Shown here piece after piece: positions 1,863-33,391 of a DNA stretch of 64,000 nt. The stretch comes from Acidobacteriota bacterium (GTDB lineage Bacteria > Acidobacteriota > Vicinamibacteria > Vicinamibacterales > 2-12-FULL-66-21): positions 53,548 to 117,547 of the forward strand of contig QHWT01000044.1 of the NCBI GenBank assembly GCA_003222675.1. Reading direction: 5' to 3'. Both the position numbers and the translations under genes were made by a program. The notes beneath the pieces were generated by a model, which did not search any database, was not told where the DNA came from, and saw only the letters and a program-made list of their open reading frames with translations. How positions within the stretch are numbered: the stretch's first letter is position 1; each line of letters starts with the position of its first letter.

Positions 1863-3008
1863 ATGAATCCGTTCGACTTTATCCTGCGCACCCGGATCGT
1901 GTTCGGCGAAGACGCGCTCGCGCAGATCGGTCGGCTGGCCAGCCAACTCGATTTCGGGCGGACCCTGGTCGTTGCTGACCGGGGGATCGTGGCGACAGGC
2001 CAGGTGGCGCGCGTGGCGAACCTGCTGAACAGCGCGGGGATCACTCCCAGCTTCTTCCACGACTTCGATGCGAACCCCGACACGCGCATGATCGAAGCGG
2101 GGCGCGACCATGCCGCGGCAAGTGGAATTGATTCCATCATCGCGCTCGGCGGCGGCAGTTCCCTCGACTGCGCGAAGGGAATCAATTTCATCCTGACTAA
2201 TGGCGGGTCGATGCGCGATTATCAGGGGCACGGCAAGGCGACGCGTCCCATGTTGCCGTCAATCGGCGTACCGATGACGGCTGGCACCGGCAGCGAGGCA
2301 CAGTCCTACGCGGTGATCTCCGACGCCGAGACGCACGCCAAGATGGCGTGCGGCGACGCGAAGGCAGCGTTTCGCGTCGCAATCCTGGACCCGGCGTTGA
2401 CGGTGTCGCAGCCGCGTACGGTTACCGCGATCGCGGGTTACGACGCCATCTCTCACGCGGTTGAATCCTACGTGACGGCGCGTCACACAATCCTTTCGAG
2501 TCTTTTTGCACGCGATGCCTGGCGCTTGCTGCACGAGCATTACGAGCGGGTGCTCGCGTGCCCCGGCGACCTCGCCGCGCGCGGGGCGATGCTGCTCGGC
2601 GCCCATGAGGCGGGCATCGCAATCGAAGCATCGATGCTGGGCGCGGCGCACGCGTGCGCGAACCCGCTGACGGCGCGATACGCGACGACCCACGGTATCG
2701 CCATTGCCGTGATGCTGCCGCACGTCGTCAGATGGAATGGAGAAGACGCGTCCACGCGCGAACGCTACCGGGAACTGCTCGGCGTCGCGGGATTGCGCGA
2801 TCGCGGCGAGCCGGGCGCGGTTCTCGCGGCAGGTCTCGAGGAGCTCGCGCGCGCCGGCGACCTGCCGCGCACGTTGCGCGAGATCGGCGTCAGCGCAAAC
2901 GACCTGCCCGCGCTCGCACAGGACGCGGCGACGCAGTGGACGGGAACGTTCAATCCGCGCCGATTCGATGAACCCGCGGCGCTGGCATTGTACGAGCGGG
3001 CACTCTGA
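1863..3008 (+). CDS. Iron-containing (group III) alcohol dehydrogenase
   Basis: 'ALGGGSSLDCAK', 'TAGTGSE', 'DAISHAVESY', 'AHACA', 'HGIA' NAD- and metal-binding motifs; ATG at 1863. Confidence 0.92.
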   Translation: MNPFDFILRTRIVFGEDALAQIGRLASQLDFGRTLVVADRGIVATGQVARVANLLNSAGITPSFFHDFDANPDTRMIEAGRDHAAASGIDSIIALGGGSSLDCAKGINFILTNGGSMRDYQGHGKATRPMLPSIGVPMTAGTGSEAQSYAVISDAETHAKMACGDAKAAFRVAILDPALTVSQPRTVTAIAGYDAISHAVESYVTARHTILSSLFARDAWRLLHEHYERVLACPGDLAARGAMLLGAHEAGIAIEASMLGAAHACANPLTARYATTHGIAIAVMLPHVVRWNGEDASTRERYRELLGVAGLRDRGEPGAVLAAGLEELARAGDLPRTLREIGVSANDLPALAQDAATQWTGTFNPRRFDEPAALALYERAL

Positions 3009-3147
3009 ACGGGGACACTCACACTTCGTCCCACAAGCGCAGGGTCTGCGGACAGAAACGGTGACAGTCACAGTTCCAACCTGTGACTGTCACACTTTCA
3101 GTGGCTGCAGTGTCCGAAACCGGGAAGAACTGTGAGTGTCCCCGTTC
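3007..3147. repeat. MITE-like element with 21-bp terminal inverted repeats between convergent genes
   Basis: GAACGGGGACACTCACACTTC (3007-3027) versus GAACTGTGAGTGTCCCCGTTC (3127-3147), 20/21 complementary; internal GTGACAGTCAC and GTGACTGTCAC palindromes. Confidence 0.7.
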
Positions 3148-4490
3148 TATTCGGGCAGCTGCTCTTGCTTGGGTTCCGGCAGCCAGAAGCTCGCAATAAA
3201 ACCGATCACGTATGCCGCTGTGCCGACGAGCGCGGCCGCGTGCGCAAGCTTGATCGGCGGCATCGCGCCGGGCATCGACGCAACGAGGTTCGTCGTCACC
3301 AGCGCCGCGGACGTGCCGATCATCCGGCCGCCCACATTCGCCGCAAAGCTCTCGCCGGTTCCCCGTAAGAACGTTGGATACACGCGCGGCAGGTAGTTGC
3401 CCCAGAAACTGAACTGCGCGATCGTCATGAACCCGACGAGCCCAATACCCCACTCGAGCAGCGCGAGGCTACTCGTCGCCGGAATCAGGAACACGAGCGG
3501 CAACAGGATGAGTCCTGGAATCTGGAAGACGTGCAGCAGCTTGCGCCGCGAGAAGATGCGGACTGCCAGAAACGCGAGGACGATCCGCCCGGCAAGACCG
3601 CCGAATTCCTGGAACGACTGCACCGCGCTGACCGTTTGCTCCTGCGCCGGCCGCGGCAGCGCGCGCACTTCCGCAAGGCCGGGGACGATGCGCGGCACCT
3701 GCTGAATCGCGCCGAACGCAGCGGCGTACGCACAGGCCATCATCACGGTTGTCACGATCGTCGTCCGGCGGAACTCGGGCTGGAACAATTCCGCGAAGCT
3801 CGGGCGCTTCAACGTGCCCGCCTTCTTCTTTTCCTGCCATGCGGGAGATTCCGGCAGAAACGGCCGGATGAGAATGAGCGGGATAGCGGGAATGACGCCG
3901 GAGATGAGCGTGTAGCGCCACGCCTCGTGACCACCGCGCACGAGCGGCAGGTGATCTCCGTATGTGACGGACAGGTAGTACCCCACGGTCACCATCAATC
4001 CGCCGAGCGATCCAAATGCCTGCGTGTAGCCCACGATGGCTTCGCGCCGTTTGGGATCCGGGAACAATTCCGACAGCCAGGCAACAGCAGCGACAAACTC
4101 CACGCACACGCCGACGAACGTGCAGCAGCGCCAGAACAGCAACCACTGCACCGACGTCGCGTAGCCGGATGCGAGCGCGGAGAACGCAAAGAGGAGGATG
4201 CTCCACACGAGCACGCGACGTCTGCCGAACAGGTCGGTGAGATACCCGCCGAGCAACCCGAAAATCCCGCCGGCGACGGCGGGTACATAAAAGAGGTAGC
4301 CCACCCACTGATTGATCGACGGGTGCGTTCCAGGCACGCCAAGGAGCTCGATGAGCGCCGGCCGGACGATCAACGGCAGCATCAGCAGCACGTAGGAGTC
4401 GAACGCGAAGCCGATCGCTGCAACGATGGCGATCAGCCATGTGAGCCGTTCGACGCGCTTTGCCGCAGCCGGGGACTGGCCAGTCGCCAT
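3147..4490 (-). CDS. MFS transporter
   Basis: Motif A 'GYLTDLFGRRRVL', about 12 hydrophobic segments, 'YPTFLRGTGESF'. Likely start is ATG 4490; the longer ORF extension overlaps the upstream gene. Confidence 0.9.
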   Translation of the reverse strand: MATGQSPAAAKRVERLTWLIAIVAAIGFAFDSYVLLMLPLIVRPALIELLGVPGTHPSINQWVGYLFYVPAVAGGIFGLLGGYLTDLFGRRRVLVWSILLFAFSALASGYATSVQWLLFWRCCTFVGVCVEFVAAVAWLSELFPDPKRREAIVGYTQAFGSLGGLMVTVGYYLSVTYGDHLPLVRGGHEAWRYTLISGVIPAIPLILIRPFLPESPAWQEKKKAGTLKRPSFAELFQPEFRRTTIVTTVMMACAYAAAFGAIQQVPRIVPGLAEVRALPRPAQEQTVSAVQSFQEFGGLAGRIVLAFLAVRIFSRRKLLHVFQIPGLILLPLVFLIPATSSLALLEWGIGLVGFMTIAQFSFWGNYLPRVYPTFLRGTGESFAANVGGRMIGTSAALVTTNLVASMPGAMPPIKLAHAAALVGTAAYVIGFIASFWLPEPKQEQLPE

Positions 4491-4492
4491 CT

Positions 4493-6112
4493 CTACACCT
4501 CGTATTTCGCGAGCGTAGCCGCCGCCGGGACCGACGCGGCTGTTGCGCGCGACACGATGAACATCAGGAACGCCGACATCAACGTCATCGGCACCACCGG
4601 CAGAAAACCAAGTACCGTCGTCCCCGCAGCCACACGGGCGATCACATGGAGACTGCCGATCGACCAGACCGGCACCGTCACGCCGGGCGGCGGCGCCGCG
4701 ACAATCGATTGCAGCATCGCGACGGCGGCAACAGCAGCCGCGGTCCAGACCGCCACGGCGAGCGCGCCCCACTTCGTGCTCTGCTTCCAGAACAACGCGG
4801 CGACGAGCAACGGCGCGAGCGCTGAGTACCCAGCAAACGCGTACTGGCTGGCGATATCGAAGATCGATTGCGGCGCGCTCAGCGCGATCGCGTAGGCCAC
4901 AATCGTCAGCGCGACGACGAACATCCGTCCCGTCTGGACCTGCACGGCAGGTCCGAAACGTGCCTGCCCTCCGTAGTAGGCAAACACGTCTTCGGTGAAC
5001 ATCGTGGAAAGCGCGAGTATCTGCGAGTCGCTCGCCATGACCGCCGCCATCACGGCCGCGCCAAGCAGCGACGCGAGCCACAGCGGCGCGTACGCGTCCA
5101 CCAGCCGCAGAATCACATCATCCCCACTTGCCTCAGCACGCAGTTGGGTGCGCCGCTCCGGCGACAGCGTGGATCCGATCGAGGCAAGCGTCGCGCGCGC
5201 CTCGAGCTTCGTCCTGATCGACGGCACGTCGACGGCGCGATTCGCGACGACCCCGAGAAGGACCGATGGTAGCCAGATCGCAAGCATGCACACCGGGTAC
5301 AGGATCACCGTCCTCCTGAAGTGTCCGAGCCGTCGCGCCGTCAGGCAGAAGATGCCGATGTGGGGAAAGGCAATCGACGAGAGCGGGATGAACGTGTAGC
5401 TGAAGAAATACAACGGCGAGACCCGCTCGCGCGTGAGGAGCGGGGCGGACGGCGATGCCAGCATCCCCTCGATTGCGGTGCGAAACCCTCCCATGCCTGC
5501 GGCGATCACCGCAACCGCGATTGCACCGAACGACAGGAACAGGATCGTCTGAAAGGTGTTCACCCAGGCCGTGCCGCGCATACCACCGAAGAACACGTAG
5601 CCCATCACGACCAGCGACACGACGGCGCCGCCGAGCCAGTACGGCACCAGGCCGTCGCTGACGGCGCGGAGCGTCGTCCCTCCGCCCATGACCGCGATCA
5701 CGACATAGGGCACGAGCAGCACCGCCTGCACGGCAAAGATCACCGTGCCGATGTGGCCGCATTCCCAGCGGTCGCGGAACATCTGCACGGGCGTCATGAA
5801 GCCGTGGCGCTTTCCCAGCGCCCAGAGCCGCGTGCCGATCACGAAGATGCCGAGCGGGATGATCAGCGCCGACGAGGACGCCATCAACCCGTACGTCACG
5901 ATCCCGTTGGCAAACGCGTGGCCTGATGCACCGAGGATCGAGAACGCCGTCATGTTGGTGCCGAACAAGGAGAGCAAGAAGACGACGGGCCCGATTGCGC
6001 GGCCGGCGAGAAAGTAATCCTCGGCGTCAGGCCGCTCGGCCGTGCGCCCGGCAAACAGGCCGATCCCCAGCACGACTGCGAGATACGCGAAGACGACGAC
6101 CGCGGGAATCAT
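4493..6112 (-). CDS. Sodium:solute symporter (SSS) family transporter
   Basis: 'DYFLAGR', '[13 protein letters not shown]', 'AAVMA..DSQIL'; many TM helices. Confidence 0.9.
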
Positions 6113-6318
6113 TCGGAGCGGCCGCGCGGGTCGTCGAGATGCGAGGGCCAGTAGCGGCGAACGATGAGCCAGAGCAACGCGGACGCGCCGAGCGTGTAAG
6201 CCGCGTGATAGAAGAGCCCGATCGGAAGAAAGCCGAACACGAGCGGCCGGGCACTCCGCCAGAACCAGAAATCCTGGTGCAGCAGGTACACGACGGCGGT
6301 AATAAGCGCAAGTGGCAA
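6109..6318 (-). CDS. Small 2-TM membrane protein (DUF3311-like, SSS-associated)
   Basis: 'HQDFWFW...[13 protein letters not shown]'; stop overlaps the SSS start by 4 bp; start uncertain (TTG 6318 proposed). Confidence 0.7.
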
Positions 6319-6338: not shown

Positions 6339-7466
6339 ATGTCGCCGTCGCCAACCGGCCGCGCCGGTCCATCCGCACCACCGTTGGCCCCATCGGCCGC
6401 TGCTGCACGCGAAACCCTCGATGCGTGGGTGCGCGAGGTCATCGACTGGCATTTCGATCCGGCGAGCGGCTGTCCGTTCTGGCTCGAGTTCGCACAGAAG
6501 AGCGGCTGGGATCCGCGACGCGAGATCAGGACGTTCACCGATCTGAAACGCTTCGGCGAATTTCAGGACGAATGGTTGCGTGGCGGGCCCGTGCAGCGGT
6601 GGATTCCCAAAGGGCTCGCGGGAGAACCGGTCTTCGTCTTCGAGACCGGCGGCACGACCGGAGTCCCGAAGACGCGCGTCGCGTGCGACGACTTTCGGAT
6701 TGACTATGAGTTGTTCAGCACGACGCTCCCTGACGAATACTTTCCAAAGGGATCCAACTGGCTGATGCTCGGTCCATCGGGACCGCGCCGCCTTCGCCTG
6801 GCGGTCGAACACCTCGCGCAATATCGAGGGGGGATCTGCTTCTGCGTCGATCTTGATCCGCGCTGGGTGATCAAGCTCATTAAGAAAGGATGGAGCGAGC
6901 ACCTGCAGGCCTACAAGGATCACGTCATCGATCAGGCCGTCACCATCCTGCGGGCGGGACACGACATCCGCTGCATGTTCACGACGCCGAAGCTGCTCGA
7001 AGCGCTCGCCGTCCGGCTCGAATCAATGGGGACGACAATCCGCCAGGCGGGGATCACCGGGATCTTCTCGGGCGGCACGGAGTTCACGCCACAGTGGAAC
7101 CGCTTCGCGCACGAGGAGCTGCTCGACGGCGCCTACATGACGCCGACGTACGGCAACACGTTGATGGGTCTTGCCGCGAGCGCGCCGAGCGGTCCGCACA
7201 ACCAATACAAGATCGCTTACTACGCCCCGCAGCCGCGGGCCGTCATCGAGGTCGTGGAGTTCGACGACCAGAACCGTCTCGTGGATTACGGCCAGACCGG
7301 CCGCGTCAAGCTGACGACGCTGACGAAAGAATTTTTCATGCCGGGCTTTCTCGAACGCGACGAGGGTGAACGCGAGCCCGCGTGCGATCGGTTCGCGTGG
7401 GACGGCATCAGCGGCGTGCGCCCGTACCGCGGCTTCGCGTCGACGACGACGGTGGGAGTGTATTGA
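6339..7466 (+). CDS. EhpF/GriC-like adenylate-forming protein (truncated ANL / LuxE-like fold)
   Basis: 'WHFDPASGCPFWL', P-loop 'FETGGTTGVPK', 'DLDPRWV', 'GGTE', 'YGNT' and C-terminal 'GVY' match, as recalled, motifs of Pantoea EhpF. Confidence 0.8.
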   Translation: MSPSPTGRAGPSAPPLAPSAAAARETLDAWVREVIDWHFDPASGCPFWLEFAQKSGWDPRREIRTFTDLKRFGEFQDEWLRGGPVQRWIPKGLAGEPVFVFETGGTTGVPKTRVACDDFRIDYELFSTTLPDEYFPKGSNWLMLGPSGPRRLRLAVEHLAQYRGGICFCVDLDPRWVIKLIKKGWSEHLQAYKDHVIDQAVTILRAGHDIRCMFTTPKLLEALAVRLESMGTTIRQAGITGIFSGGTEFTPQWNRFAHEELLDGAYMTPTYGNTLMGLAASAPSGPHNQYKIAYYAPQPRAVIEVVEFDDQNRLVDYGQTGRVKLTTLTKEFFMPGFLERDEGEREPACDRFAWDGISGVRPYRGFASTTTVGVY

Positions 7467-7565: not shown

Positions 7566-8993
7566 ATGCTTCATCTTCCCGTTCTCCGCTGGGGCCAGCC
7601 CTACGAGAGCCTCGACATCGATCAGGTGGTGCACTTCGCGACCGGCGAACCGATCGCGAAGGTCAGCCGCGCGAACGGCGGCCTGATCCAGCGCGATGCG
7701 CGCAAGGCACCGCGCGCGCGCGCGGTGCTGCGCGAGTTCTCGATCGACGATCTGATCACGCGTGTCGGCAACGCCGGCGACTTCTATATGAACGCGACGC
7801 TGCCGATGGGCGACCGCACGCAGACGCCGGACGAGTTCGTCCGCGCGCAGTCGGCCAGCACGGGACTCCCTGAGCGGCTCGCGCGCGCGAACATGCAGAA
7901 GAACGCATTCGTGCTCACCGAGATGCGCAACATTCTCGCGTCGCTGACCCGCGGCTTGTCGTTCGACATCCTGTCGCGCGGCCACGGCGAGGAGCGCGGC
8001 GTGCCCCTCAGCTACCAGGTGCAAAGCCCGGTCGTCGGCCTCGTGCTCCCCTCGAACTCGCCGGGCGTGCACACGCTGTGGCTGCCGATCATTCCGCTGC
8101 AGGTCGGCCTCGTGCTCAAGCCGGGGCCGCAGGAGCCGTGGACGCCCTTCCGCATGACGGAGGCGTTCTTCCAGGCGGGCATCCCGCGCGAGGCAGTCTC
8201 AATTTATCCGGGAGAAGGCGACGTGGGCGCCGCGGTGCTCGAGAACTGCGGGCGCACGATGATCTTCGGCGGCACGCCGACCGTCGATCGTTATCGCGGC
8301 AATCCGAAAGTGCAGGCGCACGGGCCCGGCTTCTCGAAGATCGTGATCGGGGACGACCAGGTCGACCGATGGGAACGGCATCTGGACGTGATGGTCGACA
8401 GCGTATTCGCGAACAGCGGACGCGGGTGCATCAACGCGTCCGGCATCTGGGCGAGCCGCCACACCCGCGACATCGCGGAGGCCATCGCGCGTCGATTCGC
8501 CGCGGTGCGGCCGCTGCCTCCTGAGCATGCGGACGCGAGCCTTGCGGCATTCACCGTTCCCGGTGTCGCGGATGCAATCTCCACGTCAATCGATGCGGAC
8601 CTGCAGACGCCGGGCGTGACAGACGTCACGTCGAAGCACCGCGACAACGAGCCGCGCCTGGTCAAGCAGGGCCGGGCGGATTACCTGCTCCCGACGGTCG
8701 TGCACTGCGATTCGCCGGAGGCGGCGATTGCAAGGAAGGAATACATGTTCCCCTTCGTCACGGTTGTCGAGTGCCCCGAGGCGAAGATGATTGACGCGAT
8801 CGGTCCCACGCTCGTGTGCTCGGCCATCACGTGCAATACGGAGCTCCGCCGGAAGCTGCTCGATGCCGTCAACATCGATCGGCTGAACCTGGGTCCGGTG
8901 AGGACGACGCAATTGAACTGGCTGCAGCCGCACGAGGGAAACCTGATCGATTTCCTCTTCCGCGCCCGCGCGTTCCAGACCGCGGAGCTATAG
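7566..8993 (+). CDS. Aldehyde dehydrogenase-fold protein (GriD/EhpG/LuxC-like acyl reductase candidate)
   Basis: 'LPSNSPG', 'LKPG', catalytic-Cys region 'NSGRGCINAS', 'EYMFPF'; 'HGPGFSK' replaces the usual ALDH 'ELGGK'. Confidence 0.8.
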   Translation: MLHLPVLRWGQPYESLDIDQVVHFATGEPIAKVSRANGGLIQRDARKAPRARAVLREFSIDDLITRVGNAGDFYMNATLPMGDRTQTPDEFVRAQSASTGLPERLARANMQKNAFVLTEMRNILASLTRGLSFDILSRGHGEERGVPLSYQVQSPVVGLVLPSNSPGVHTLWLPIIPLQVGLVLKPGPQEPWTPFRMTEAFFQAGIPREAVSIYPGEGDVGAAVLENCGRTMIFGGTPTVDRYRGNPKVQAHGPGFSKIVIGDDQVDRWERHLDVMVDSVFANSGRGCINASGIWASRHTRDIAEAIARRFAAVRPLPPEHADASLAAFTVPGVADAISTSIDADLQTPGVTDVTSKHRDNEPRLVKQGRADYLLPTVVHCDSPEAAIARKEYMFPFVTVVECPEAKMIDAIGPTLVCSAITCNTELRRKLLDAVNIDRLNLGPVRTTQLNWLQPHEGNLIDFLFRARAFQTAEL

Positions 8994-21748: not shown

Positions 21749-22148
21749 TCCGAAACCGTGCTGCGATGTCTTCAGGAATTTCGATCGAGCGCATGGGTTC
21801 GCCATTACCCTTGGCGACGCAGGCGATCTTCATCGAGCCGGTCGCGATCCGTTCCTCTCCCTGTTGAATGATGCACTTGTACGCGATCGTCCGGCGGGTG
21901 ATCTCAGAGATTCGGATGGCGATCTCAAACTCGTCCTCGAATCGGAGCGCGCGGTGGAACTCGCACGAGGCCGCCACGCGCGGCCAACCGATCTCCGACG
22001 CGGGTGGATGGATGCTCAACCCGGCTTCGCGCCAGAGCGCATGCTCCGCTTCCTCCATGTACCGGAAGAACCAGCTGAAGTGCACGATCCCGGCCACGTC
22101 AGTCTCGTAGAAGTGGACGCGGCGCTTGATTCGCAATTCGGTCGGCAA
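21735..22148 (-). CDS. Hotdog-fold acyl-CoA thioesterase (4HBT/YbgC family)
   Basis: 'RVHFYETDVAGIVHFSWFFRYMEEAE', 'CEFHRALRFED'. Confidence 0.88.
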   Translation of the reverse strand: MPTELRIKRRVHFYETDVAGIVHFSWFFRYMEEAEHALWREAGLSIHPPASEIGWPRVAASCEFHRALRFEDEFEIAIRISEITRRTIAYKCIIQQGEERIATGSMKIACVAKGNGEPMRSIEIPEDIAARFRTSSR

Positions 22149-24840: not shown

Positions 24841-26293
24841 TGATCGATAGCGCGAACAACTGGTTCCGGTTGTTCAGGAACAGCGCGCCGTGGGCGGGCA
24901 CCGGCGTCGCGTAGACGGCGCTTCCCATGTTCATCTCGGCGAGCACCTTCTTGGTCTTCCCCGCCTGCAGCACCACGACGTCGCCGTCTTCGTCGCCCAG
25001 GTACACCTTCCCGTCAATCACCATCGTCGATCCCCAGACGGCGGCGAGGACGTCGTGCGTCCAGTACGGCTGGCCGGTCTTCGCGTCGAGGCAATGCAGG
25101 AACCCGCTGAAGTCCGCGCTGTAGAGCAGCCCGTCGGCGATCGACGCGGTCGAAATCGAGCGCCGGATCTTGTCGTACTGCCAGACGAGACCCGTCTTCG
25201 TGATGTCGCCCCGCTTCGTCGCATCGATGGCGTACATGTGGCCGACGCCCTCGCCGTGCTCGGGATCCTGCCCGTTCGCGATGTAGATCTTGTCGTCGTA
25301 GATGACCGGCGTCGAGATCACTTCATTGCGCGTCTTCGGCCAGACGGCCTCTTTCGGATTCGTGTCGAACTCCCAGAGTTTCTTGCCCATCGCGGTTTCG
25401 TAGCCGCGCACCCAGCCGTCCCCCTGCGCGCTGACCACCTGGTCGACGCCGCCGATCTTGCCGACCGCCGGCGTGGACCACTGCCCATGGAGAATCCGGT
25501 CCTCGACGGAGTTGTCTTCCCACACCAGCTTTCCGGTGTTCTTGTTGAGCGCGATGATTGACGGCGCCTTCGGTGACGGAATGTGGACGTGGCTTTCGTC
25601 CTGGCCGTTCGACGTGCTCACGAACACGAGGTCGCCCCAGATCACCGGCGATGAGTTCGACATGTTGTGCGGATAGGAGCCGACCTCCTCCATCATGTCG
25701 AACGACCAGATCGCGTCCGCGTCGTGCTCACCCGTCAGCTTCTCGTCGGTGATCGGGCCGTCGTTCTTACCGTCGCGAAAGCCGTTGACGTCGAGGCACC
25801 AGACGACCCCGCGGTTGCTCGTGTAATAGAGCTTCGTGCCTTCGACGAGCGGCGATGAGGCGACGCCCTGGAAGGGCCAGTCGTTCGCGCGTCCCGACGA
25901 CAGCTTCTCGTGCGTCTGCTGCCAGAGGAACTCACCGTTCGATTCGCGAAACGCCATCAGCACGCCGCGATCGCCCGCCTGATTCTTGTCGCGGAGCCCC
26001 TCATTATTCGTCCCCACGAACACCATGCCGCCGGCGACGACCGGATTGCCGTAGCTTTGCGAGCCGAGGTTGGCAACCCACTTCACGTTCTTCTTCGTCT
26101 TGACGTCCCATTCGGTGGGCAGCCCTTTCATGTTCGATACCATGTTGCGATCGGGCGTGCCCCCCCACATCGGCCAGTCGCCGGATCCTGGATCGCTCAG
26201 TTCTTCCGCCTGTAGGCGGAAGTTCCCGGACGGTCGCTCGGGTAGACACAATGCCCCGGCCGCGAACAGCGATACGACGAACAGTTTTCTCAT
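24830..26293 (-). CDS. Secreted PQQ-like beta-propeller protein #4
   Basis: Signal peptide, 'DWPMWGGTPDRN', 'SSPLV', 'GQDPEHGEG'. Confidence 0.88.
   Translation of the reverse strand: MRKLFVVSLFAAGALCLPERPSGNFRLQAEELSDPGSGDWPMWGGTPDRNMVSNMKGLPTEWDVKTKKNVKWVANLGSQSYGNPVVAGGMVFVGTNNEGLRDKNQAGDRGVLMAFRESNGEFLWQQTHEKLSSGRANDWPFQGVASSPLVEGTKLYYTSNRGVVWCLDVNGFRDGKNDGPITDEKLTGEHDADAIWSFDMMEEVGSYPHNMSNSSPVIWGDLVFVSTSNGQDESHVHIPSPKAPSIIALNKNTGKLVWEDNSVEDRILHGQWSTPAVGKIGGVDQVVSAQGDGWVRGYETAMGKKLWEFDTNPKEAVWPKTRNEVISTPVIYDDKIYIANGQDPEHGEGVGHMYAIDATKRGDITKTGLVWQYDKIRRSISTASIADGLLYSADFSGFLHCLDAKTGQPYWTHDVLAAVWGSTMVIDGKVYLGDEDGDVVVLQAGKTKKVLAEMNMGSAVYATPVPAHGALFLNNRNQLFALSINGK
26203..26222. repeat. REP-like palindrome in coding frame (encodes NFRLQAEE)
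   Basis: CTTCCGCCTGTAGGCGGAAG. Confidence 0.7.
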
Positions 26294-28500
26294 TGGTTTG
26301 CCGTCAGCTTCAGATTATCGAGATACGCGCCGAACTCCGCATCGACGAAGAGTCCCGGCGCTCCCTTGTGATTGCCGATCGGATCGACCTTCTCGATCGT
26401 CCACGCGGCGGGCTCCGGCTGGCCGACAGCCCACGCCTTGCCGCGCGCGCGCACCTTGCCGTCCGGCATGTTCTCCACGCGAAGCTTCACGTGGTACCAC
26501 GCATCGGCCTGCCATTCGAACGGCGCCTCCACCGAGCGCGCCGTCTCCGGCTCCCATGATTCGATCTTGAGCCTCTGCGCGTTGCCGTACAACACGAGCG
26601 AGTAGCGCTGCGCGGTGATCCCGATGTCGGTCATCTGGCGGCGCCGTGTGGTACCGCGCACGTCCGCCTCGAACGTGTAATCCGCGAGATCGACGGGCCC
26701 GACGAACACGCGGATGCGCTTGAAAATGGTCTGGTCGGGCGCCTTCTGCAGGACTTTTTGTCCATCCAGCGTGACGACGGAGAATTTCCCGGCCGTGGCG
26801 TTGATCCAGCCGGGAGGCACCGCGCCGTCCCCGTACGAATCAAACGTCTCGGTCCATGGCAGCGGACGCAGCACGCGCGCGCGGGCTTCGCCACCGACCG
26901 TCCCGACGTTCGCCTTGATCGTGCCGGCCTGATCGACCGGGTCCGGCGCGCTGGTGAACGTCCCGTGCGTCACGGTCCCTTTCAATCCCTGGAGCGACCA
27001 TGTGGCGCCGGCCTCCTCTCGCAGGAAGCGTCCCTTCGCGTCGAACAGGCGCGCGTGCAGCGTCACCGATTGCCCGGGTTTCAGCACCAGCTCCGTCGGT
27101 GAGACCTGCACCCACGCCGGCTCCCCCTCGCCTTTTTCCGGCGCCTCGTCCACGGTTGTGCCGCTGGTGACTTTCGGCGCCTTCGAACCGAGCGCGTAGA
27201 CGCCACCGGTCGAGACGAAGAAGATGCGGCCGCGCGAAATCGCTGCGCCCGCAAACACTGGTTCCGGGAGACCCGCCGACTGACCGGCGTTGTCGTCCTT
27301 GCTGAGCGGCAACTCGACGGACGGACGGACGATGAAGAACCTGCCGCTTTCGGTGCCGACATAAAGCTTGCCGTCCGCGAGCACGAGCGGCGCCTTCTGG
27401 ATCGTCCCGAGCGTCTGCGTCCACAGCGAATGGCCCGTTTCGAGATCGTACGCCTTGAGCCGCGAACCGTTCTCGACCTGATACACGCGCGTGCCATCGA
27501 TCACGGGAGAGGAGAAGCCGAACTGATCCCCCTTGTTGGCCCACCTGGTCGTCTTGATGTCTCCCCTCTGCGACCCATCGATCGCGGCAATCATCCCGAG
27601 CTCGTTCGTGTCGAGGTTCTCGTCACCGTGCGAGATGATCACCGTGCTGCCTGAGACCGCAACCGCCGTGTTGATCGCGCGCTTCGCGGCGACGAAGCTC
27701 CACACCTTCTCGCCCGTCTGCGGCTTGATTGCGTGCACGCCTCCGTCACCGAGACCGCAGATGAGGAGCCGCTGTCCGTTGATCGTCGCGATCACCGGCG
27801 CCGCATACGCGGTGTCGTAGGGGCGTCCGCCCGGGCTCGCGACCCACATGATGTCGCCCGTCCGCTTGTCGAGCGCGATGAACCGGTGCGCGCGATTGGC
27901 CTGCGTGCCCCAGCTCGAGATCGCCGCGCTGACGATCACGAGATCCCCATCCACGATCGGAGACATGGTACGGCCGCCGTGCGTGGTGAACGCGGCAAAC
28001 TCTTCGCCGACGGATCGCTGCCACAGCAGCTTGCCGTCGTTGGTCAGCGCGACGACCTCGGCGCCGACGGTGAGGCCGTAGATATTCCCCGTTTCGGGAT
28101 CCGCGGTCGGCGATGCCCAACCCACGCGATGCGGCGGCACATCGCTCTGGTAGATGCTGAACTTCTGTTCCCAGATCACCTTTCCGGTGTCGGCGTCGAG
28201 CGCCATGATCCGCTCCTGCAGATCGGCGCCGTGCCCGGAGGGGTTCTGCACGATGACGCGGTTGCCCATGACGATCGGCGCGGAGCGGCCACCGTAAGGC
28301 GCGCGCCACAGGAAATTGCGGCCGTTGAGCTCCCAGGTGTCGATCAGACCCTTTTCGTCCGACACGCCGCTCCGGTGAGGCCCGCGCGCATCCGGCCAGT
28401 CGCCCAGCGCGACATGCCGTCCGCCGTCCGCCGCGGTGACCACCGTCACGGCCGCAACGAGTACCGTCAGAACGCAAAGTCGTTTCAACATAGAGATCAT
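26290..28500 (-). CDS. Secreted PQQ-like beta-propeller protein #5 with C-terminal Ig-like and jelly-roll (ConA/LamG-like) domains
   Basis: 'DWPDARGP', propeller repeats, then 'DYTFEADV', 'WYHVKLRV', 'GKAW....EP..W', 'YLDNLKL'. Confidence 0.82.
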   Translation of the reverse strand: MISMLKRLCVLTVLVAAVTVVTAADGGRHVALGDWPDARGPHRSGVSDEKGLIDTWELNGRNFLWRAPYGGRSAPIVMGNRVIVQNPSGHGADLQERIMALDADTGKVIWEQKFSIYQSDVPPHRVGWASPTADPETGNIYGLTVGAEVVALTNDGKLLWQRSVGEEFAAFTTHGGRTMSPIVDGDLVIVSAAISSWGTQANRAHRFIALDKRTGDIMWVASPGGRPYDTAYAAPVIATINGQRLLICGLGDGGVHAIKPQTGEKVWSFVAAKRAINTAVAVSGSTVIISHGDENLDTNELGMIAAIDGSQRGDIKTTRWANKGDQFGFSSPVIDGTRVYQVENGSRLKAYDLETGHSLWTQTLGTIQKAPLVLADGKLYVGTESGRFFIVRPSVELPLSKDDNAGQSAGLPEPVFAGAAISRGRIFFVSTGGVYALGSKAPKVTSGTTVDEAPEKGEGEPAWVQVSPTELVLKPGQSVTLHARLFDAKGRFLREEAGATWSLQGLKGTVTHGTFTSAPDPVDQAGTIKANVGTVGGEARARVLRPLPWTETFDSYGDGAVPPGWINATAGKFSVVTLDGQKVLQKAPDQTIFKRIRVFVGPVDLADYTFEADVRGTTRRRQMTDIGITAQRYSLVLYGNAQRLKIESWEPETARSVEAPFEWQADAWYHVKLRVENMPDGKVRARGKAWAVGQPEPAAWTIEKVDPIGNHKGAPGLFVDAEFGAYLDNLKLTANQ

Positions 28501-28584: not shown

Positions 28585-31500
28585 TCAGAAAAGGACCTTT
28601 ACGCCGAGCTGTAACCTCCGGGGACTGCCGGCCGACAGGATCTGACCGAACGTCGGCGAGAGGAGGACGTTGTCCGGCAGGTTGTAGTTAACGCGATTGA
28701 ACAGGTTGAACGCCTCCAGACGGAGCTGGAGCCGTGTATCGCCGTTCAAGCGCACATGCTTCAACACGCCGAGATTGAAGTTGGCGTATCCCGGCCCTTC
28801 CAGAATGTTGCGTCCGGCGTTCCCGAACGTGCCGAAGGGCGGAATCGAGAACGCCTTCGTGTTGAACCACTGCGCGGCGCTCGGATTCGCGACGCTGGTG
28901 GCGCCGCTGACGTTCGGCCGATCGTTCGCGCCGAACCCAAGCGATCCGCGGCCCGTGTTGCTGTTGTCGAAATCGGGCGACAACAGCACGGTGAACGGCC
29001 GGCCGCTCTGCAGCGTGAGGATCCCGGTGACGGCCCAGTCCGCGAGAAGATTCGACGCCCAGCCGTGATTTGCGAACCGGTTGCTGCCGGAGCCGAACGG
29101 CATGTCGCACGTGAACCCGAACGTCAGCCGCTGACGCAGATCGAAATTCGATCGTCCCCACTCCGCGTCAGGATTGTTGCTGTCCTGCGGGAAGTTCGGA
29201 TCGCCGGTGCTCGTAAACAATCCCGAGGCATCGTCGTGCGACGACGACCATGTGTACGATGCGAGCGCCGTCACGCCCATCGACAGGCGCTGGGTGAACG
29301 ACATCTGCAGGCTGTCGTAGTCGGATCGCGCCTGCGACTCGAGGGCGGTGATATCGGCCAACAAGGGATTCGGCCGCAGGTTCAGCGGTTGAGGACTCGC
29401 GTTCGCCTGGTTGGCGTCGCGTCCGCGCAGCAGGTCGCGTCCCTTCGATCCGACGTACGCGACGTCGACCAGACGCGAGGGACCGAGCTGACGCTGCACC
29501 GTGATGTTCCACTGGTGCGCGTGGGCCGTCTGGAAATCGCGTTGATACGTCGTCGCCGACGGCGGAATGAAGATTGGAAACTGCTGCGGGTACGGATCGT
29601 TGATGAACAGAAGCGACCCTGGTAGCGGAAAGAAGATGCGCAGATCGAAGAGCGGCGGATTGAAGTAGATCCCCTCGCCCGGCGCGAGCGCCGACTGATC
29701 GTAATAGATCCCGTAACCGGCGCGGACGACGGTCTTTCCCGATTCGTCGACGCTCCACGCGGCACCGACGCGCGGCGCCCAGTTGTTCCGATCCGGTTCG
29801 TAGCCACCGCGCGGAACACCGTTGGTGCCGACCTGCACGACCGATCCGGCGGACGGATCGTATACAGCGGCGCGATCGTGAGCGTCGTAGGGCGGGGCGT
29901 TGTACTCGTAGCGCAGGCCGGCCGACAGCGTCAGCCGCGAGCTCACCGCAACGCTGTCCTGCACGAATGCGCCGTAGCCGTGCGTGCGCAGGTGCTGTGC
30001 ATTGTCGAGACGCGCGACCCCGGTCGTGACCGGCAGGCCGAGCAGGAGATCGGCCAGCGCGTTGCCCGTCAGCTGCGCCTGGTCCGCAAAGCTGAGGAAG
30101 CCCCGCGCCTGTATGTCACGAAACGCGCCCTGCTGAACCATGCGCACGTCCACGCCGGTTCGCACCAGGTGCCGGCCGCGCGCATATGTGATCGAGTCGG
30201 TAACCTGGAGCTGGTCCGTGTGGCTCTTCTGCGGCGCGTTATAGTCGTCGCCGATCGGTGAATATCCCGTCAAGGTGATGAGGCTCAGTCCGGAATCGCG
30301 CGGATCGGCCGACACAGTGGGCAATCCAACCTGCTGATTGACGTTGGTTCTGCTTTCCTGGAAGGCGCCGGCGTTGATTCGCGTGTATCCAATGCGTACT
30401 TCGTTGAGCAGGGCATTCGAGAACACGCGGCGCTCGCCGGCCATCGCATTCTGCGCCCGCCGCGGGGCGCTCGTGCCGAACCCGGGCACGAGCGAGAAGC
30501 CGGCGCCGGAGAACGGCTCGAAGAAATCACGATCGCTGAAGCTGTAGCGCAGCGTGAGCGTCGCGCGCGGAGGTCTGGTCGAGTGATCGACGCGCAGATC
30601 GTACTGATCGCGACGGTCGGTCGAGACCGGTGACGACACGTAGTTCTGAAACGGAACCCCCCGGTTCGGCAGCGGATACAGCGCGGCGATCGCACGGCCG
30701 ACCGGATTGATGAAGGCCGGCGGGATGACGCCGTTGGCGAATGGCTGCTGCGTGAACAGGTTGAACGGCCGCGGCGAAAGGCTCTGCGAGAAATCCCCGC
30801 TGCGCTCGGCCGTCGTCGGCACGTTGGTGACCGTCGTGATCCCCTCGCGCGTGCGCGTCCCCTCATAGTCGCCGAAGAAGAACGTGCGATTCTTCACGAT
30901 CGGTCCGCCGAATGCCGCGCCGAACTGGTGACGGCTGTACGCGGGATCCGGTTCGTTCTTCGGCGCGAACGCGTTCGTCGCGTTCAGCGCGCGATCCCGG
31001 AAGAACTCGTACGCGGTCTCATGAAGCCGGTTCGCGCCCGACTGGACGACGACGTTCACCTGGCCGGCGCTGTTGCGTCCGAACGACGCGTCAGCCGTGC
31101 TCGTGACGAGCTCGAATTCCTGCACCGCATCCACCGGCGGCGACACGCCGAGCGTGTTCAACTTCGGATCGACGTTGAGCACACCATCGAGCAGATATCC
31201 GTTCGAGTCTTCGCGGCCGCCATTGACGTGAAACGCAAAGTCGCCGCGCACCGAGGATGCCGATCCTGGGGCCTCGGGCGCGGTACCGGGCGCGAGCAGG
31301 CTGAGCTCGAGGAAGTTGCGGCCGTCGAGCGGCAGCCCGCGAATCTGTTCGCCGTCGATTGCCGTCGCGCGCGCGGGACGGAGCCGTTCGATTGACGCGG
31401 CGGGTGCCGTCACCGTAACGCTCTCGTCGCGTTGGCCGAGCGTCAGCTGGATGTCGACGCGCCGCTCTTCGCCAACTTGCAAGCGGATCTGCTGTGTGTA

Positions 31501-31755
31501 GGCCTTGTATCCCGCCTGCTCGATCTGGATCGTATGCGTGCCGGACGGAATCGCGGCGACGACAAACCGGCCGGTGCCGTCGGCCGTGACGGTCCGCCGT
31601 TCACCGGTGTCGACCTGCACGATCGTCACCTGCACACCGGGAATCGGCATCGCCGACGGATCGAGGACGACGCCACGGATGGATGCGAGTGGAGTCTGAG
31701 CTGCGGCGGGTAGCGCCAGCGCCGCCGCCATCGCGAGCGCGAGGAAAGCCGTCAT
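28585..31755 (-). CDS. TonB-dependent receptor with carboxypeptidase-regulatory-like N-domain (Oar-like)
   Basis: 'IRGVVLDPS..PIPGVQVT', 'LPLDGRNFLEL', 'DAVQEF', 'NNWAPRVG', C-terminal 'QLGVKVLF'; ATG 31755. Confidence 0.92.
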   Translation of the reverse strand: MTAFLALAMAAALALPAAAQTPLASIRGVVLDPSAMPIPGVQVTIVQVDTGERRTVTADGTGRFVVAAIPSGTHTIQIEQAGYKAYTQQIRLQVGEERRVDIQLTLGQRDESVTVTAPAASIERLRPARATAIDGEQIRGLPLDGRNFLELSLLAPGTAPEAPGSASSVRGDFAFHVNGGREDSNGYLLDGVLNVDPKLNTLGVSPPVDAVQEFELVTSTADASFGRNSAGQVNVVVQSGANRLHETAYEFFRDRALNATNAFAPKNEPDPAYSRHQFGAAFGGPIVKNRTFFFGDYEGTRTREGITTVTNVPTTAERSGDFSQSLSPRPFNLFTQQPFANGVIPPAFINPVGRAIAALYPLPNRGVPFQNYVSSPVSTDRRDQYDLRVDHSTRPPRATLTLRYSFSDRDFFEPFSGAGFSLVPGFGTSAPRRAQNAMAGERRVFSNALLNEVRIGYTRINAGAFQESRTNVNQQVGLPTVSADPRDSGLSLITLTGYSPIGDDYNAPQKSHTDQLQVTDSITYARGRHLVRTGVDVRMVQQGAFRDIQARGFLSFADQAQLTGNALADLLLGLPVTTGVARLDNAQHLRTHGYGAFVQDSVAVSSRLTLSAGLRYEYNAPPYDAHDRAAVYDPSAGSVVQVGTNGVPRGGYEPDRNNWAPRVGAAWSVDESGKTVVRAGYGIYYDQSALAPGEGIYFNPPLFDLRIFFPLPGSLLFINDPYPQQFPIFIPPSATTYQRDFQTAHAHQWNITVQRQLGPSRLVDVAYVGSKGRDLLRGRDANQANASPQPLNLRPNPLLADITALESQARSDYDSLQMSFTQRLSMGVTALASYTWSSSHDDASGLFTSTGDPNFPQDSNNPDAEWGRSNFDLRQRLTFGFTCDMPFGSGSNRFANHGWASNLLADWAVTGILTLQSGRPFTVLLSPDFDNSNTGRGSLGFGANDRPNVSGATSVANPSAAQWFNTKAFSIPPFGTFGNAGRNILEGPGYANFNLGVLKHVRLNGDTRLQLRLEAFNLFNRVNYNLPDNVLLSPTFGQILSAGSPRRLQLGVKVLF

Positions 31756-31856
31756 AGTATTTTGTTCGTCAAAAGGACGCGGTGTCCGGGTGGTCATTCT
31801 ATCGCAGCGCAGAGGCTCGTCCGTTGCGGCTCGGCGCGCAATTGAAGGAGTCCCCA

Positions 31857-32126
31857 CGCGCAATCGAAGGAGCGCCTGCGGCCAGCGCGAGCGGCCGGAG
31901 GGTAGCGCCGCGAAGCGGCGCCCGCGAGCGCGAGCGCGTGAGAGCCGTCAGCCGCCGCGGAGCCCGAATGGGCGGAGCGGCAAGCGTCGGGGGTGGGGCC
32001 CCGACGCATTTGAAAGATGTGGGGCCCCGCGCGCAATCGAAGGAGCGCCTGCGGCCAGCGCGAGCGGCCGGAGGGTAGCGCCGCGAAGCGGCGCCCGCGA
32101 GCGCGAGCGCGTGGGGGTGGGGCCCC
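31857..32126. repeat. 84-bp exact direct repeat (x2) plus GGGGGTGGGGCCCC motifs in a divergent intergenic region
   Basis: 31857-31940 identical to 32030-32113; GGGGTGGGGCCCC at ~31990 and ~32114. Confidence 0.85.
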
Positions 32127-32152
32127 ACGCGCAAATTAAGTAAGGAGCTTCT

Positions 32153-33391
32153 ATGAAGACCGCGCGCTCTCTGTTCGCGATCGGAATAGTCCTTGGGATG
32201 AGTGTCGTGACGGGCGGTCAGTCGGCGCCGGGCGACTGGCCCCAGTGGCAGGGGCCCGACCGTAACGGCTCGTCGAAAGAGACGGGCCTCCTCAAGGAAT
32301 GGCCATCATCGGGTCCGCCGCTCGTCTGGTCCGCGTCGAACCTCGGCGGCGGGTACGGTTCGATTGCCGTAAAAGCCGATCGGATTTATGTGCAGGGGAT
32401 GAAAGGGTCGACGAGCATCGTATCCGCGCTCAATCGCGCGGACGGCAAACCGCTCTGGTCGAAATCAGTCGGACCGTCTGCCGGTAGCGACCAGGGCGAC
32501 GGGCCGCGCGGGACGCCGACCCTCGACGCCGATCGACTGTACGTGCTGACGGAGAACGGAGATCTCGCCTGCCTCAAGACTGACGGCAGCGCCGTATGGC
32601 AGCGCAACATTCTCAAGGACTTCAATGGCCGCAACCTGCGATGGCTCATCAGCGAATCACCACTCGTCGACGGCAGCAACGTGATCGTCACGCCGGGCGG
32701 TGCCAATGCCGGTATGGTGGCGCTCGACAAGATGACGGGAAAGACCATCTGGACCAGCAAGGAGCTGAGCGATCCCGCAGGCTACGCATCGCCCGTGGTT
32801 GCGGAGGTCGGCGGCGTCCGCACCTACACGACGCTGACGTCGAGTGCCGGTGTCGGCGTGCGCGCGTCCGATGGAAAGTTGATGTGGCGATACGATCGCG
32901 CCGCGAACAACGTCGCCAACATCGCCACGCCACTCTTTTCCGACAACAAGGTGTTCTACACGTCCGCCTACGATACGGGGGCGGCGCTGCTCGGCCTGAC
33001 CGCGCAGAACGGCGAGGTGAAGGCCAACGAAATCTACTTCACGCGCAACATGAAAAACCATCATGGCGGCGTCGTGCTGGTGAACGGCTACGTGTACGGC
33101 TTCACCGATTCGATCCTGACGTGCCTGGAATTCGCGACGGGCAAGCAGGTGTGGCGCGACCGCAGCGTCGGCAAGGGTACCGTGACCTACGCCGACGGCA
33201 ACCTTTATGTACAGGGGGAGAACAACACCGTCGGCCTCGCGGAGGCGACGCCGAACGGTTACAACGAGAAGGGACGGTTCAAGATTGCCGACCAGGGTCT
33301 TCCGAGCTGGGCCCATCCTGTCGTAAGCGGCGGCCGGCTCTACGTGCGCAATCAAGGCACCCTGGCGGCGTACGATATCAAGGCGAAGTAG
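32153..33391 (+). CDS. Secreted PQQ-like beta-propeller protein #6
   Basis: TAAGGAG RBS, signal peptide, 'DWPQWQGPDRNG', 'GPRGTP', 'WAHPVVSGGRLYVR'. Confidence 0.9.
   Translation: MKTARSLFAIGIVLGMSVVTGGQSAPGDWPQWQGPDRNGSSKETGLLKEWPSSGPPLVWSASNLGGGYGSIAVKADRIYVQGMKGSTSIVSALNRADGKPLWSKSVGPSAGSDQGDGPRGTPTLDADRLYVLTENGDLACLKTDGSAVWQRNILKDFNGRNLRWLISESPLVDGSNVIVTPGGANAGMVALDKMTGKTIWTSKELSDPAGYASPVVAEVGGVRTYTTLTSSAGVGVRASDGKLMWRYDRAANNVANIATPLFSDNKVFYTSAYDTGAALLGLTAQNGEVKANEIYFTRNMKNHHGGVVLVNGYVYGFTDSILTCLEFATGKQVWRDRSVGKGTVTYADGNLYVQGENNTVGLAEATPNGYNEKGRFKIADQGLPSWAHPVVSGGRLYVRNQGTLAAYDIKAK

Follow-up and report, generated by a model that had tools for sequence, protein, structure and literature searches.

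Do the genes at positions 1863-33391 of a 64,000-nt stretch of acidobacterial DNA form a single biosynthetic system, and what would such a system make? The stretch, referred to here as the window, is part of contig QHWT01000044.1 of assembly GCA_003222675.1 (forward-strand positions 53,548 to 117,547), and an earlier note on it had proposed an undescribed small-molecule or cofactor locus with neither a polyketide synthase (PKS) nor a nonribosomal peptide synthetase (NRPS) core. The locus is identified here as a rearranged copy of a conserved PKS/NRPS-free system of 17 genes, among them a GriC/GriD-type acid reductase pair, a halogenase and exported propeller proteins. It represents a real, widespread and uncharacterised pathway, in which known enzyme types occur in an undescribed combination together with a dedicated set of periplasmic propellers.

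The source genome (G000) is 7.16 Mb in size and 99.9% complete, and the window lies on its contig C145. Named close homologues of the marker gene belong to Acidobacteria/Vicinamibacterales, and the runs that carry the stretch are soil metagenomes, with no RNA run among the listed holders. GC content is even across the locus, with no anomaly marking an island, no tRNA was found in the window, and the genes at 1863-33391 form several short operons with intergenic gaps of -43 to +468 nt.

A conserved gene set and its three modules

In two Planctomycetota genomes, G357 and G391, the 17 genes stand in a single co-directional order: PQ5-PQ4-DUF3311-SSS-GriC-GriD-FeADH-PQ3-HemN-ChorL-HAL-GT4-TE-DMT-PaaK-ABC-FtsX. 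Here PQ denotes exported propellers, SSS a sodium:solute symporter, FeADH an Fe-dependent alcohol dehydrogenase (Fe-ADH), HemN a HemN-like radical S-adenosylmethionine (SAM) enzyme, ChorL a chorismate-lyase-like protein, HAL a halogenase, GT4 a glycosyltransferase, TE a thioesterase, DMT (drug/metabolite transporter) a small protein with five transmembrane segments (5-TM protein), PaaK a PaaK-like aryl-CoA ligase, and ABC and FtsX the ATPase and permease of an ATP-binding cassette (ABC) transporter. A similar run, with a CPA2 antiporter and an FhuA-type receptor in addition, occurs in G078 (an acidobacterium of 44% GC), and an Opitutaceae locus carries a divergent version of the cluster. The window holds 15 of the 17 genes in rearranged order and is without the chorismate-lyase-like gene and the PaaK-like ligase. 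The 15 genes, annotated by Pfam and NCBIfam scans (30 window proteins were scanned for Pfam), are the following.

1863..3008, +, Fe-ADH, core, likely aldehyde to alcohol (PF00465, E 8.8e-44)
4493..6112, -, SSS, core, likely precursor import (PF00474)
6109..6318, -, DUF3311 small membrane partner of SSS (PF11755, E 2.1e-9)
6339..7466, +, EhpF/GriC-type adenylating protein (GriC), core (EhpF PDB match, E 2.6e-43)
7566..8993, +, EhpG/GriD-type reductase (GriD) of aldehyde dehydrogenase (ALDH) fold, core (PF00171)
8994..10325, +, GT4 glycosyltransferase with N-terminal C-G-x-C, core (PF00534)
10309..10983 (start approximate), +, LolD/MacB-type ABC ATPase, core (TIGR02211, E 5.5e-70, under cut-off)
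10987..14334, +, duplicated FtsX-type (type VII ABC) permease, 1115 aa, core (PF02687; 11 predicted transmembrane segments)
18530..18991, -, small 5-TM membrane protein, weakly EamA-like, core (transmembrane prediction)
20280..21584, -, flavin-dependent halogenase-type enzyme of the Trp_halogenase family, module B (best PDB matches all halogenases, E to 1.6e-64)
21735..22148, -, 4HBT/YbgC-type thioesterase, core (PF13279, PF03061)
22162..23496, -, HemN-like radical SAM enzyme, module B (PF04055 and PF06969)
23635..24840, -, exported propeller PQ3, ACSF4-type, core (PF13570, 260 bits, over cut-off)
24830..26293, -, exported 8-bladed propeller PQ4, core (PQQ_2 family; predicted model)
26290..28500, -, exported propeller PQ5 with C-terminal Ig-like and lectin/CBM-like domains, core (PF13360; model)

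All of the gene classes that the earlier note had assigned to 1863-33391 are present there by Pfam, NCBIfam or PDB match; the DUF3311 gene and a frameshifted gene with ankyrin and DUF3471 domains come in addition to its list. Only its label 'DMT-like' is weak: the gene at 18530..18991 encodes a membrane protein with five predicted transmembrane segments, with no Pfam match to the protein itself and a weak EamA match (E 0.013, under cut-off) in one of six orthologues.

Linkage was examined in two sets of loci. In the first, 80 GTDB loci around GriC relatives, an ALDH-fold gene adjoins GriC in 76/80, and one is present in 49/49 of the loci of at least 20 kb; these 49 longer loci contain the ABC ATPase in 32 cases, the permease in 28 and GT4 in 20. 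Among the loci are some from Planctomycetota, one from an Opitutaceae, and others whose records bear the names Chitinophagaceae and Clostridia; GriC relatives are estimated to occur in about 4500 stored stretches of the GTDB collection. The second set consists of 27 windows of about 40 kb, from Vicinamibacterales (10), other Acidobacteriota (10) and Planctomycetota (7), the last being a biased group picked for the proximity of GriC and the HemN-like gene. GriC and the GriD reductase are found in 27/27 of these windows, GT4, the ABC ATPase and the permease in 19/27 each, SSS and DUF3311 in 16/27 each, PQ4 in 15/27, PQ5, Fe-ADH and the 5-TM protein in 14/27 each, and PQ3 in 13/27. Fe-ADH lies within 20 kb of GriC in its 14 windows, which include 7/7 Planctomycetota, while the HemN-like gene occurs in 11 windows, the thioesterase in 9 and the halogenase in 8.

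Inheritance was followed in samples of 251 Acidobacteriota and 151 Planctomycetota genomes, and in a set of 80 genomes made up of 65 GriC-positive genomes, 4 partial carriers, 3 genomes of the same genus and 8 GriC-negative controls; the counts take in two unpublished genomes, G085 and G181, and no conclusion depends on either. The pattern defines three modules. Module A, always present, comprises reduction, glycosylation, export and propellers; module B consists of the halogenase and the HemN-like radical SAM enzyme (ring decoration); and module C consists of the chorismate-lyase-like protein and the PaaK-like CoA ligase (precursor supply). A GriC match was found in 67/251 Acidobacteriota, and its identity is at least 58% in 65 genomes (the two distant matches, at 33% and 39%, were left out of the counts), and PQ4 in 69/251, including all 65 GriC-positive genomes. 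The HemN-like enzyme has an orthologue in 56/251, of which 55 are GriC-positive, and the halogenase, counted at E under 1e-100 and with 4 of 57 matches (38-40% identity) left out, has one in 53/251, each of the 53 also carrying the HemN-like gene; 52 of the 65 GriC-positive genomes carry the halogenase. Where the two module B genes share a contig, they lie within 6 kb of each other in 47/48 cases. In Planctomycetota, GriC at 49% identity or more is present in 30/151 genomes (14 of 44 matches, at 31-39%, were left out), and the same 30 have a HemN-like orthologue.

Among the 65 GriC-positive Acidobacteriota, the chorismate-lyase-like gene is strong in 18 (4 weak matches of 22 left out), a close ligase is present in 16 (14 of 30 ligase genomes, at 38-52%, left out) and SSS in 53. 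All 16 close ligase orthologues sit in ChorL-positive genomes, and none of the three genes was found in the 8 controls or the 4 partial carriers. SSS is present in 35/37 module B genomes without ChorL, in 13/18 with ChorL and in 5/10 without module B. Module C was not detected in the source genome or in three relatives of the same genus, and a search of the source genome for a chorismate lyase with two tblastn queries, two Pfam families and one profile gave no match. The earlier note had named scattered orthologues as the outcome that would speak against its proposal; in Acidobacteriota and Planctomycetota, where this was followed, the orthologues co-occur and cluster, and the linkage and co-occurrence counts bear out a real co-inherited system without a PKS or NRPS core. 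The genes are co-inherited, and their linkage and co-occurrence across phyla are not a matter of chance. Inheritance as strict as this, at 50-90% identity, suggests that the system has a permanent role in the envelope and is not an occasional antibiotic.

The remaining genes of the locus are less constant.

3147..4490, -, major facilitator superfamily (MFS) transporter, accessory (PF07690; best NCBIfam match TIGR00895, aromatic acid/H+ symporter, under cut-off)
14803..16107, +, exported propeller PQ1, conserved in Acidobacteriota (PF13360)
16241..17584, -, exported propeller PQ2, accessory (PF13360)
17587..18433, -, ankyrin and DUF3471 gene, frameshifted, accessory (PF00023, PF11954)
19003..20322 (start approximate), -, CPA2 cation/proton antiporter, accessory (PF00999, E 2.4e-55)
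28585..31755, -, TonB-type barrel with carboxypeptidase-regulatory domain, accessory (PF25183)
32153..33391, +, exported propeller PQ6, accessory (PF13360)

At bars of at least 50% identity for PQ1, PQ2 and PQ6 and at least 45% for the TonB receptor, the receptor, PQ2 and the ankyrin gene each recur in 1/27 windows, CPA2 in 2/27, and MFS in 5/27, in that sample only in Vicinamibacterales. PQ1 is found in 12/20 Acidobacteriota and 0/7 Planctomycetota windows, and PQ6 in 0/27, looser relatives of PQ6 (27-38%) recurring near the cluster. The TonB receptor is one of many paralogues, with 90 tblastn segments in its own genome. The earlier note had listed the TonB receptor, CPA2, MFS and all six propellers in its gene set, and the 27-window comparison places the TonB receptor, CPA2, MFS, PQ2 and PQ6 outside the core; core status was likewise rejected for the ankyrin gene and for flanking formamidase, DUF1080 and MoxR genes. 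The ankyrin frameshift near 18123 is one of two local defects that were compared with contigs of four runs: it is also in the main contig of the best-holding run, whereas contigs of runs X2 and X3, from two other studies, are one base shorter there and do not have it.

Several features beside these genes were recorded. A GC-rich element in two near-identical copies lies between the TonB receptor and PQ6 (~31830-32130), and a small, apparently frameshifted gene for a tRNA-binding-domain (CsaA-like) protein lies at ~1056-1443 (-; PF01588, E 9.4e-5, under cut-off). The 33449-41172 segment (-) encodes two secreted DUF1080-like proteins (one with PF06439, E 2.5e-51), followed by an operon that by eye looks like VWA/DUF58/MoxR genes, and its genes are not linked to the cluster in the other genomes compared.

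Enzymes of modules A, B and C

GriC is homologous over its length to EhpF (PDB 3hgu/3l2k), its only significant PDB match (E as listed, residues 26-364), as for a truncated ANL adenylating protein. In a tree of 41 GriC rows, the 32 rows of cluster-linked proteins group as a single clade (support 100/100) separate from EhpF-like, Streptomyces and haloarchaeal rows; phyla are intermixed, and the outgroup branches are long. The adjoining GriD has the features of the ALDH-fold partner in a two-component reductase, in that the catalytic Cys is kept and the general-base Glu is missing: Cys289 and His253 are invariant in 26/26 sequences, the His replacing the Glu, and the ELGG of a solved ALDH aligns with HGPG. 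A His in place of the general-base Glu of hydrolytic ALDHs is expected in a thioester reductase. GriD also shares 24% identity with an EhpG-like protein encoded in a phenazine cluster (E 2.8e-28). The acid-to-aldehyde step of the earlier note has good sequence support in the EhpF match, the Cys/His pattern and the EhpG-like identity, and GriC/GriD are predicted, well supported by homology and residues, to reduce an acid to an aldehyde. The GriC and GriD from which the names are taken adenylate 3-amino-4-hydroxybenzoate and reduce it to the aldehyde, according to the portion of the source available (PMC10179220).

The GriC family also occurs in other settings. Loci L086, L143, L146 and L154 each carry two GriC paralogues of different subclades on either side of GT4, and a plasmid of the haloarchaeon Halalkalicoccus jeotgali (L240:4511-8569) carries a three-gene SSS-GriC-GriD unit without the rest of the cluster. 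Loci L217, L218 and L219, in three Planctomycetota genomes, have a separate GriC-like clade of 35% identity with no GriD neighbour and a shared unannotated gene context. No GriC relative was found among viral contigs, and plasmid matches are distant (31-39%). In the window, the starts of DUF3311 (-) and GriC (+) are separated by 20 nt (6319-6338), in which TATACT (+) and TAGTAT (-) end ~7-10 nt before the start codons, like overlapping -10 boxes of leaderless divergent transcripts.

The GT4 enzyme has a C-terminal nucleotide-sugar domain with the donor-site residues R..K and E-x7-E, and C15, C18, R248, K253, E335 and E343 are invariant in 22/22 sequences. The 41 GT4-type PDB sequences that match it include none that matches across profile positions 1-129, and the N-terminal part with the invariant C-G-x-C is unmatched by any solved GT4. 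The copy in the window is without five residues of a motif present in 21/21 orthologues; the contig of the best-holding run, X1, contains the 15 missing bases, differing at 18 other letters, and the gap is therefore probably an assembly or strain artefact. The transporter that follows has DevC and LolD as its best NCBIfam matches, both under cut-off.

With regard to module B, the flavoenzyme matches 14 PDB entries at E under 1e-15, each of which is either a halogenase or a related flavoprotein, and they place it with the PltA/CndH/ChlB4 type. The motif set of PltA/CndH-type enzymes (GxGxxG, Lys, WxWxIP, FxDPxxSxG) is present, with K70, W-x-W-x-I-P and F-x-D-P-x-x-S-x-G invariant in 8/8; the Lys, equated by alignment to the CndH position, we take to be catalytic. 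There is no carrier protein in the 17-gene operon, and a close ligase accompanies only the 16/65 GriC-positive genomes counted above. The spacer between the halogenase and thioesterase genes (21585-21734) is filled with 7-base repeats, which are arranged as two inverted blocks. HemN and NocN are the only PDB matches of the radical SAM enzyme, in which CxxxCxxC is invariant in 14/14. It was rejected as a HemW heme chaperone, the HNxxYW that marks HemW (in the part of PMC10114718 available) being missing in 14/14 and a separate 26% paralogue lying elsewhere in the genome, and as a HemN coproporphyrinogen dehydrogenase (TIGR00538, 184.7 bits vs a cut-off of 324.95); it falls under every NCBIfam cut-off. 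Delivery of a SAM-derived methylene is common among HemN-like enzymes, and those of class C are described as placing it on aromatic rings (PMC10114718).

The ligase of module C is AMP-binding and PaaK-like. Its partner matches chorismate-lyase/Rv2949c Atlas clusters (features 0.97, structure TM 0.85-0.88), although no more than 11-30% of the proteins in the nearest of these clusters carry the family annotations, and it has no direct Pfam match. The earlier note had left the substrate as a carboxylic acid of any kind: activation of an acid stands, but because ChorL and the PaaK-like ligase are core genes elsewhere, the relatives point to an aromatic hydroxybenzoate rather than to any carboxylic acid.

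The exported propellers

The six propellers of the window carry PQQ_2 domains in Pfam, and a seventh paralogue lies just past the window end (G000:C145:118598-119926). Orthologues of PQ3, PQ4 and PQ5 have a signal-like hydrophobic leader in 44/45 cases and a lipobox in 3/45. The PQ4 model (predicted local distance difference test score, pLDDT, 88.9) is an 8-bladed propeller whose nearest folds are YxaL (Z 38.4, root-mean-square deviation (rmsd) 2.3, 341 aligned) and BamB (Z 35.8), followed by tetrathionate hydrolase (Z 31.2) and PedH (Z 31.1, 383 residues aligned); no pyrroloquinoline quinone (PQQ) dehydrogenase appears in the Foldseek rows listed, which reach rank 50 with gaps. Identity to BamB, YxaL and PQQ-type propellers is 17-22%, and the loops of PQ4 are conserved, polar and His-rich. 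The label 'PQQ-like' used in the earlier note is right as to the propeller fold, but its implication of a quinoprotein is not borne out, YxaL and BamB being nearest to PQ4. By family score, a PQQ-dependent quinoprotein was rejected for all six propellers (TIGR03075 at most 100.5 bits vs 480), as was BamB (TIGR03300 55-172 bits vs 285, with the lipobox in only the 3/45 orthologues). A search for PqqC in five genomes gave no match, but the control genomes gave none either.

PQ3 has a Cys174-Asp175 pair that is invariant in 24/24. The C-terminal part of PQ5 (model pLDDT 94.3) resembles two parts of galactocerebrosidase, its sandwich and its lectin domain (Z 20.1, with 177 residues aligned at an rmsd of 2.6), as well as CBM66 (Z 16.7). 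This lectin/carbohydrate-binding module (CBM)-like fold would fit a glycoside ligand, although a shared fold shows no function. Among the 150 best relatives of PQ4, fusion to another of the cluster's propellers is seen in 17 (5 PQ3-like, 8 PQ6-like, 1 PQ5 and 3 PQ1/PQ2-like), which suggests that the propellers may act jointly. Prediction of a PQ4 and PQ5 complex scored 0.00 in two runs, which gives no verdict and was used neither way. Because 14 of 32 hand-picked long PQ4 relatives carry a BlaR1/M56 domain, it is suggested that the propeller can act as a ligand-binding module. In P0134, P0137, P0141, P0142, P0148 and others, PQ4-like propellers (40-50% identity) serve as the outer domain of a BlaR1/M56 receptor or are fused to kinase, caspase-like and methyltransferase domains.

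A proposed pathway and its alternatives

From the genes, motifs, linkage, co-occurrence and folds set out above we infer a substrate, an order of steps, a product and a fate. The best explanation, although we stop a little short of calling it probable, is that a hydroxybenzoate is halogenated, modified by one carbon, reduced to the alcohol, glycosylated and delivered to the periplasmic propellers. In genomes with module C (ChorL and the PaaK-like ligase), the hydroxybenzoate would come from chorismate; genomes without it would import the acid through SSS/DUF3311, and because the genome studied here has neither ChorL nor the ligase, it likely imports its precursor through SSS. The acid would be tethered as a thioester, to which the halogenase and the HemN-like enzyme would add a halogen and one carbon, and the thioesterase would release the modified acid. 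Adenylation by GriC and reduction by GriD would then give the aldehyde, which Fe-ADH would convert to a benzyl alcohol; GT4 would glycosylate the alcohol, the type VII ABC transporter would move the glycoside out to the periplasm, and PQ3, PQ4 and PQ5 would receive it there. The product is likely a halogenated, one-carbon-modified benzyl-alcohol glycoside. It is conceivable but doubtful that this glycoside, exported under the protection of its sugar and captured by an assembly of several propellers (with the lectin domain of PQ5 and the invariant Cys of PQ3), represents a class of cofactors or envelope building blocks new to the periplasm.

A number of observations weigh against this pathway. 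GriC and the HemN-like gene lie within 35 kb of each other in only 18/40 same-contig cases. Module B is missing from 10/65 GriC-positive genomes, and the halogenase from 3 more, so halogenation is not needed for module A. No close CoA ligase is found in 39/55 module B genomes, which leaves the halogenase tether unexplained, and no chorismate lyase or close ligase was detected in the genome studied here, so that the aromatic substrate is taken from relatives. Because GriC shares just ~34% identity with EhpF-like proteins and stands in a clade of its own, the specificity of EhpF cannot be transferred to it. The SSS contrast (p 0.03) comes from related, non-independent genomes with many SSS matches near the cut-off and is a hint only. 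Type VII ABC permeases usually move lipid-linked cargo, yet the set is without a lipid-attaching enzyme.

Four other readings were considered. A product that is itself a new propeller cofactor, as PQQ is for quinoproteins, made by genomes with modules B and C and scavenged by others through a TonB receptor and SSS, is unlikely. The 10/65 genomes without module B do resemble a producer/scavenger pattern, an FhuA-type TonB receptor lies within the cluster in 3/10 non-Vicinamibacterales windows, and the conserved polar loops of PQ4, the invariant Cys-Asp of PQ3 and the alignment of PQ4 with PedH would all suit a cofactor; YxaL and BamB nevertheless outrank the quinoproteins, no PQQ dehydrogenase appears among the listed rows, SSS is kept in only half of the ten genomes without module B, and the operon is without electron-acceptor genes. 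Somewhat more doubtful is a diffusible secondary metabolite or signal, such as a bmp-type halogenated aromatic or the barettin link proposed for the sponge 'Halo_AMP' clusters. Near-universal single copies at 50-90% identity, co-inherited even when megabases apart, are unusual for clusters of that kind, three dedicated periplasmic propellers would be unneeded for a diffusible product, and the set contains no amino-acid-coupling enzyme for a diketopiperazine. These points stand against a MarR-type regulator upstream of the cluster in G357, the PQ4-like outer domains of BlaR1/M56 receptors among the long relatives scanned, the mixing of phyla on the GriC tree, as after transfer, and the resemblance of chorismate lyase, halogenase, ligase and thioesterase to bmp/baa logic as far as the available text describes it (10.1101/723874).

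If GriC were instead part of a LuxE/LuxC-like fatty acid reductase, a long-chain alcohol could pass to GT4 and leave as a glycolipid by DevBCA/LolCDE-like export. The DevC and LolD matches of the transporter, the position of GT4, ABC and FtsX directly after GriC/GriD in Vicinamibacterales and the ability of module A to stand without module B are in keeping with this, but the PDB match is EhpF and not LuxE, chorismate-lyase-like and PaaK-like genes lie inside the conserved operon, and the flavoenzyme motifs are those of an aromatic halogenase, which makes the glycolipid improbable. In the last reading there is no dedicated product, and the cell would import aromatic acids from its surroundings, reduce and glycosylate them and pump them out again, as a form of detoxification or recycling. 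The haloarchaeal SSS-GriC-GriD unit and an MFS most like aromatic acid symporters speak for it; chorismate lyase, halogenase and the radical SAM enzyme are biosynthetic additions and no part of a detoxification, and this reading is very improbable.

The halogenated benzyl glycoside pathway can also be set against known systems. GriC/GriD of grixazone synthesis in Streptomyces griseus and EhpF/EhpG of phenazine synthesis show the same adjoining truncated adenylating protein and ALDH-fold reductase (the present proteins being ~34% and ~24% identical to an EhpF/EhpG-like pair), whereas here the pair forms its own clade and is coupled to Fe-ADH, GT4, an ABC exporter, a halogenase, a radical SAM enzyme and propellers; a phenazine (ehp) or grixazone cluster was rejected, with no phz core or griH/griI genes at 58-34144 or among conserved neighbours. 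The HemN fold, CxxxCxxC and HemN_C domain are shared with the class C radical SAM C1-transfer enzymes (NosN/NocN, MenK, ChuW), but the present enzyme lies below every NCBIfam cut-off and has no known substrate context. PQ4 shares its fold with BamB, YxaL and PQQ-type 8-bladed propellers, whereas here several propellers, sometimes fused and with conserved polar loops, are co-encoded in a biosynthetic operon. Mycobacterial p-hydroxybenzoic acid derivative (p-HBAD) glycosides combine a chorismate lyase with a glycosyltransferase, as in the full cluster, and heterocyst glycolipid export (HglT with DevBCA) combines a GT4 with an FtsX-type ABC exporter. To our knowledge neither has a counterpart of the acid reduction, halogenase, radical SAM enzyme or propellers, and the present set is without a PKS.

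The bmp and baa loci, as described in the portion of text available (10.1101/723874), share a chorismate lyase-like gene beside a flavin halogenase and the lack of a megasynthase; this pairing was not found in G000 but is present in other cluster members. BaaB, compared by description only, is given there as 44% similar to Bmp5, whereas the present enzyme is of the PltA/CndH/ChlB4 type. That portion names only baaA, baaB and an unlinked baaC, and the baa locus was rejected as the same system, having a Bmp5-like brominase and no other linked gene named (10.1101/723874). A computational list of sponge clusters includes Halo_AMP, with an aryl-CoA-ligase-like A domain, a halogenase and a radical SAM enzyme, and with frequent PQQ-like domains and TonB receptors; its component A is acidobacteriotal (bioRxiv 10.64898/2026.08.03.742642, available portion). 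Compared by description only, component A is plausibly identical with the present system, and Halo_AMP clusters may include modules B and C. Component A differs in having P450s and is tied speculatively to barettins (10.64898/2026.08.03.742642); no P450 was found among the 30 window proteins scanned; the available preprint text does not contain 'aldehyde', 'dehydrogenase', 'chorismate' or 'symporter', and describes no reductase pair and nothing characterised. The earlier note knew of no characterised pathway with this gene set, and the literature searched, which did not extend to the greater part of the subscription journals or to the first papers on EhpF and GriC/GriD, likewise gave no described pathway that matched.

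Carriers of the system (65/251 Acidobacteriota and 30/151 Planctomycetota) abound in soil, fresh water and sponges, little is known of their chemistry, and standard cluster finders would probably miss a cluster with no PKS/NRPS core. Once the product is named, functions would follow together for two orphan enzymes (the halogenase and the HemN-like enzyme), an unusual Cys-bearing GT4 and a large exported propeller family, and the three-module pattern supplies natural controls in the form of producers, importers and strains without module B. The product could also point to bacteria as a common source of the halogenated aromatics found in soil. If the glycoside is indeed such a periplasmic cofactor or building block, these phyla's large family of orphan 'PQQ-like' propellers would gain its missing ligand, a compound made or scavenged in one in four Acidobacteriota and one in five Planctomycetota, and a widespread bacterial source would be added to those of soil organohalogens.

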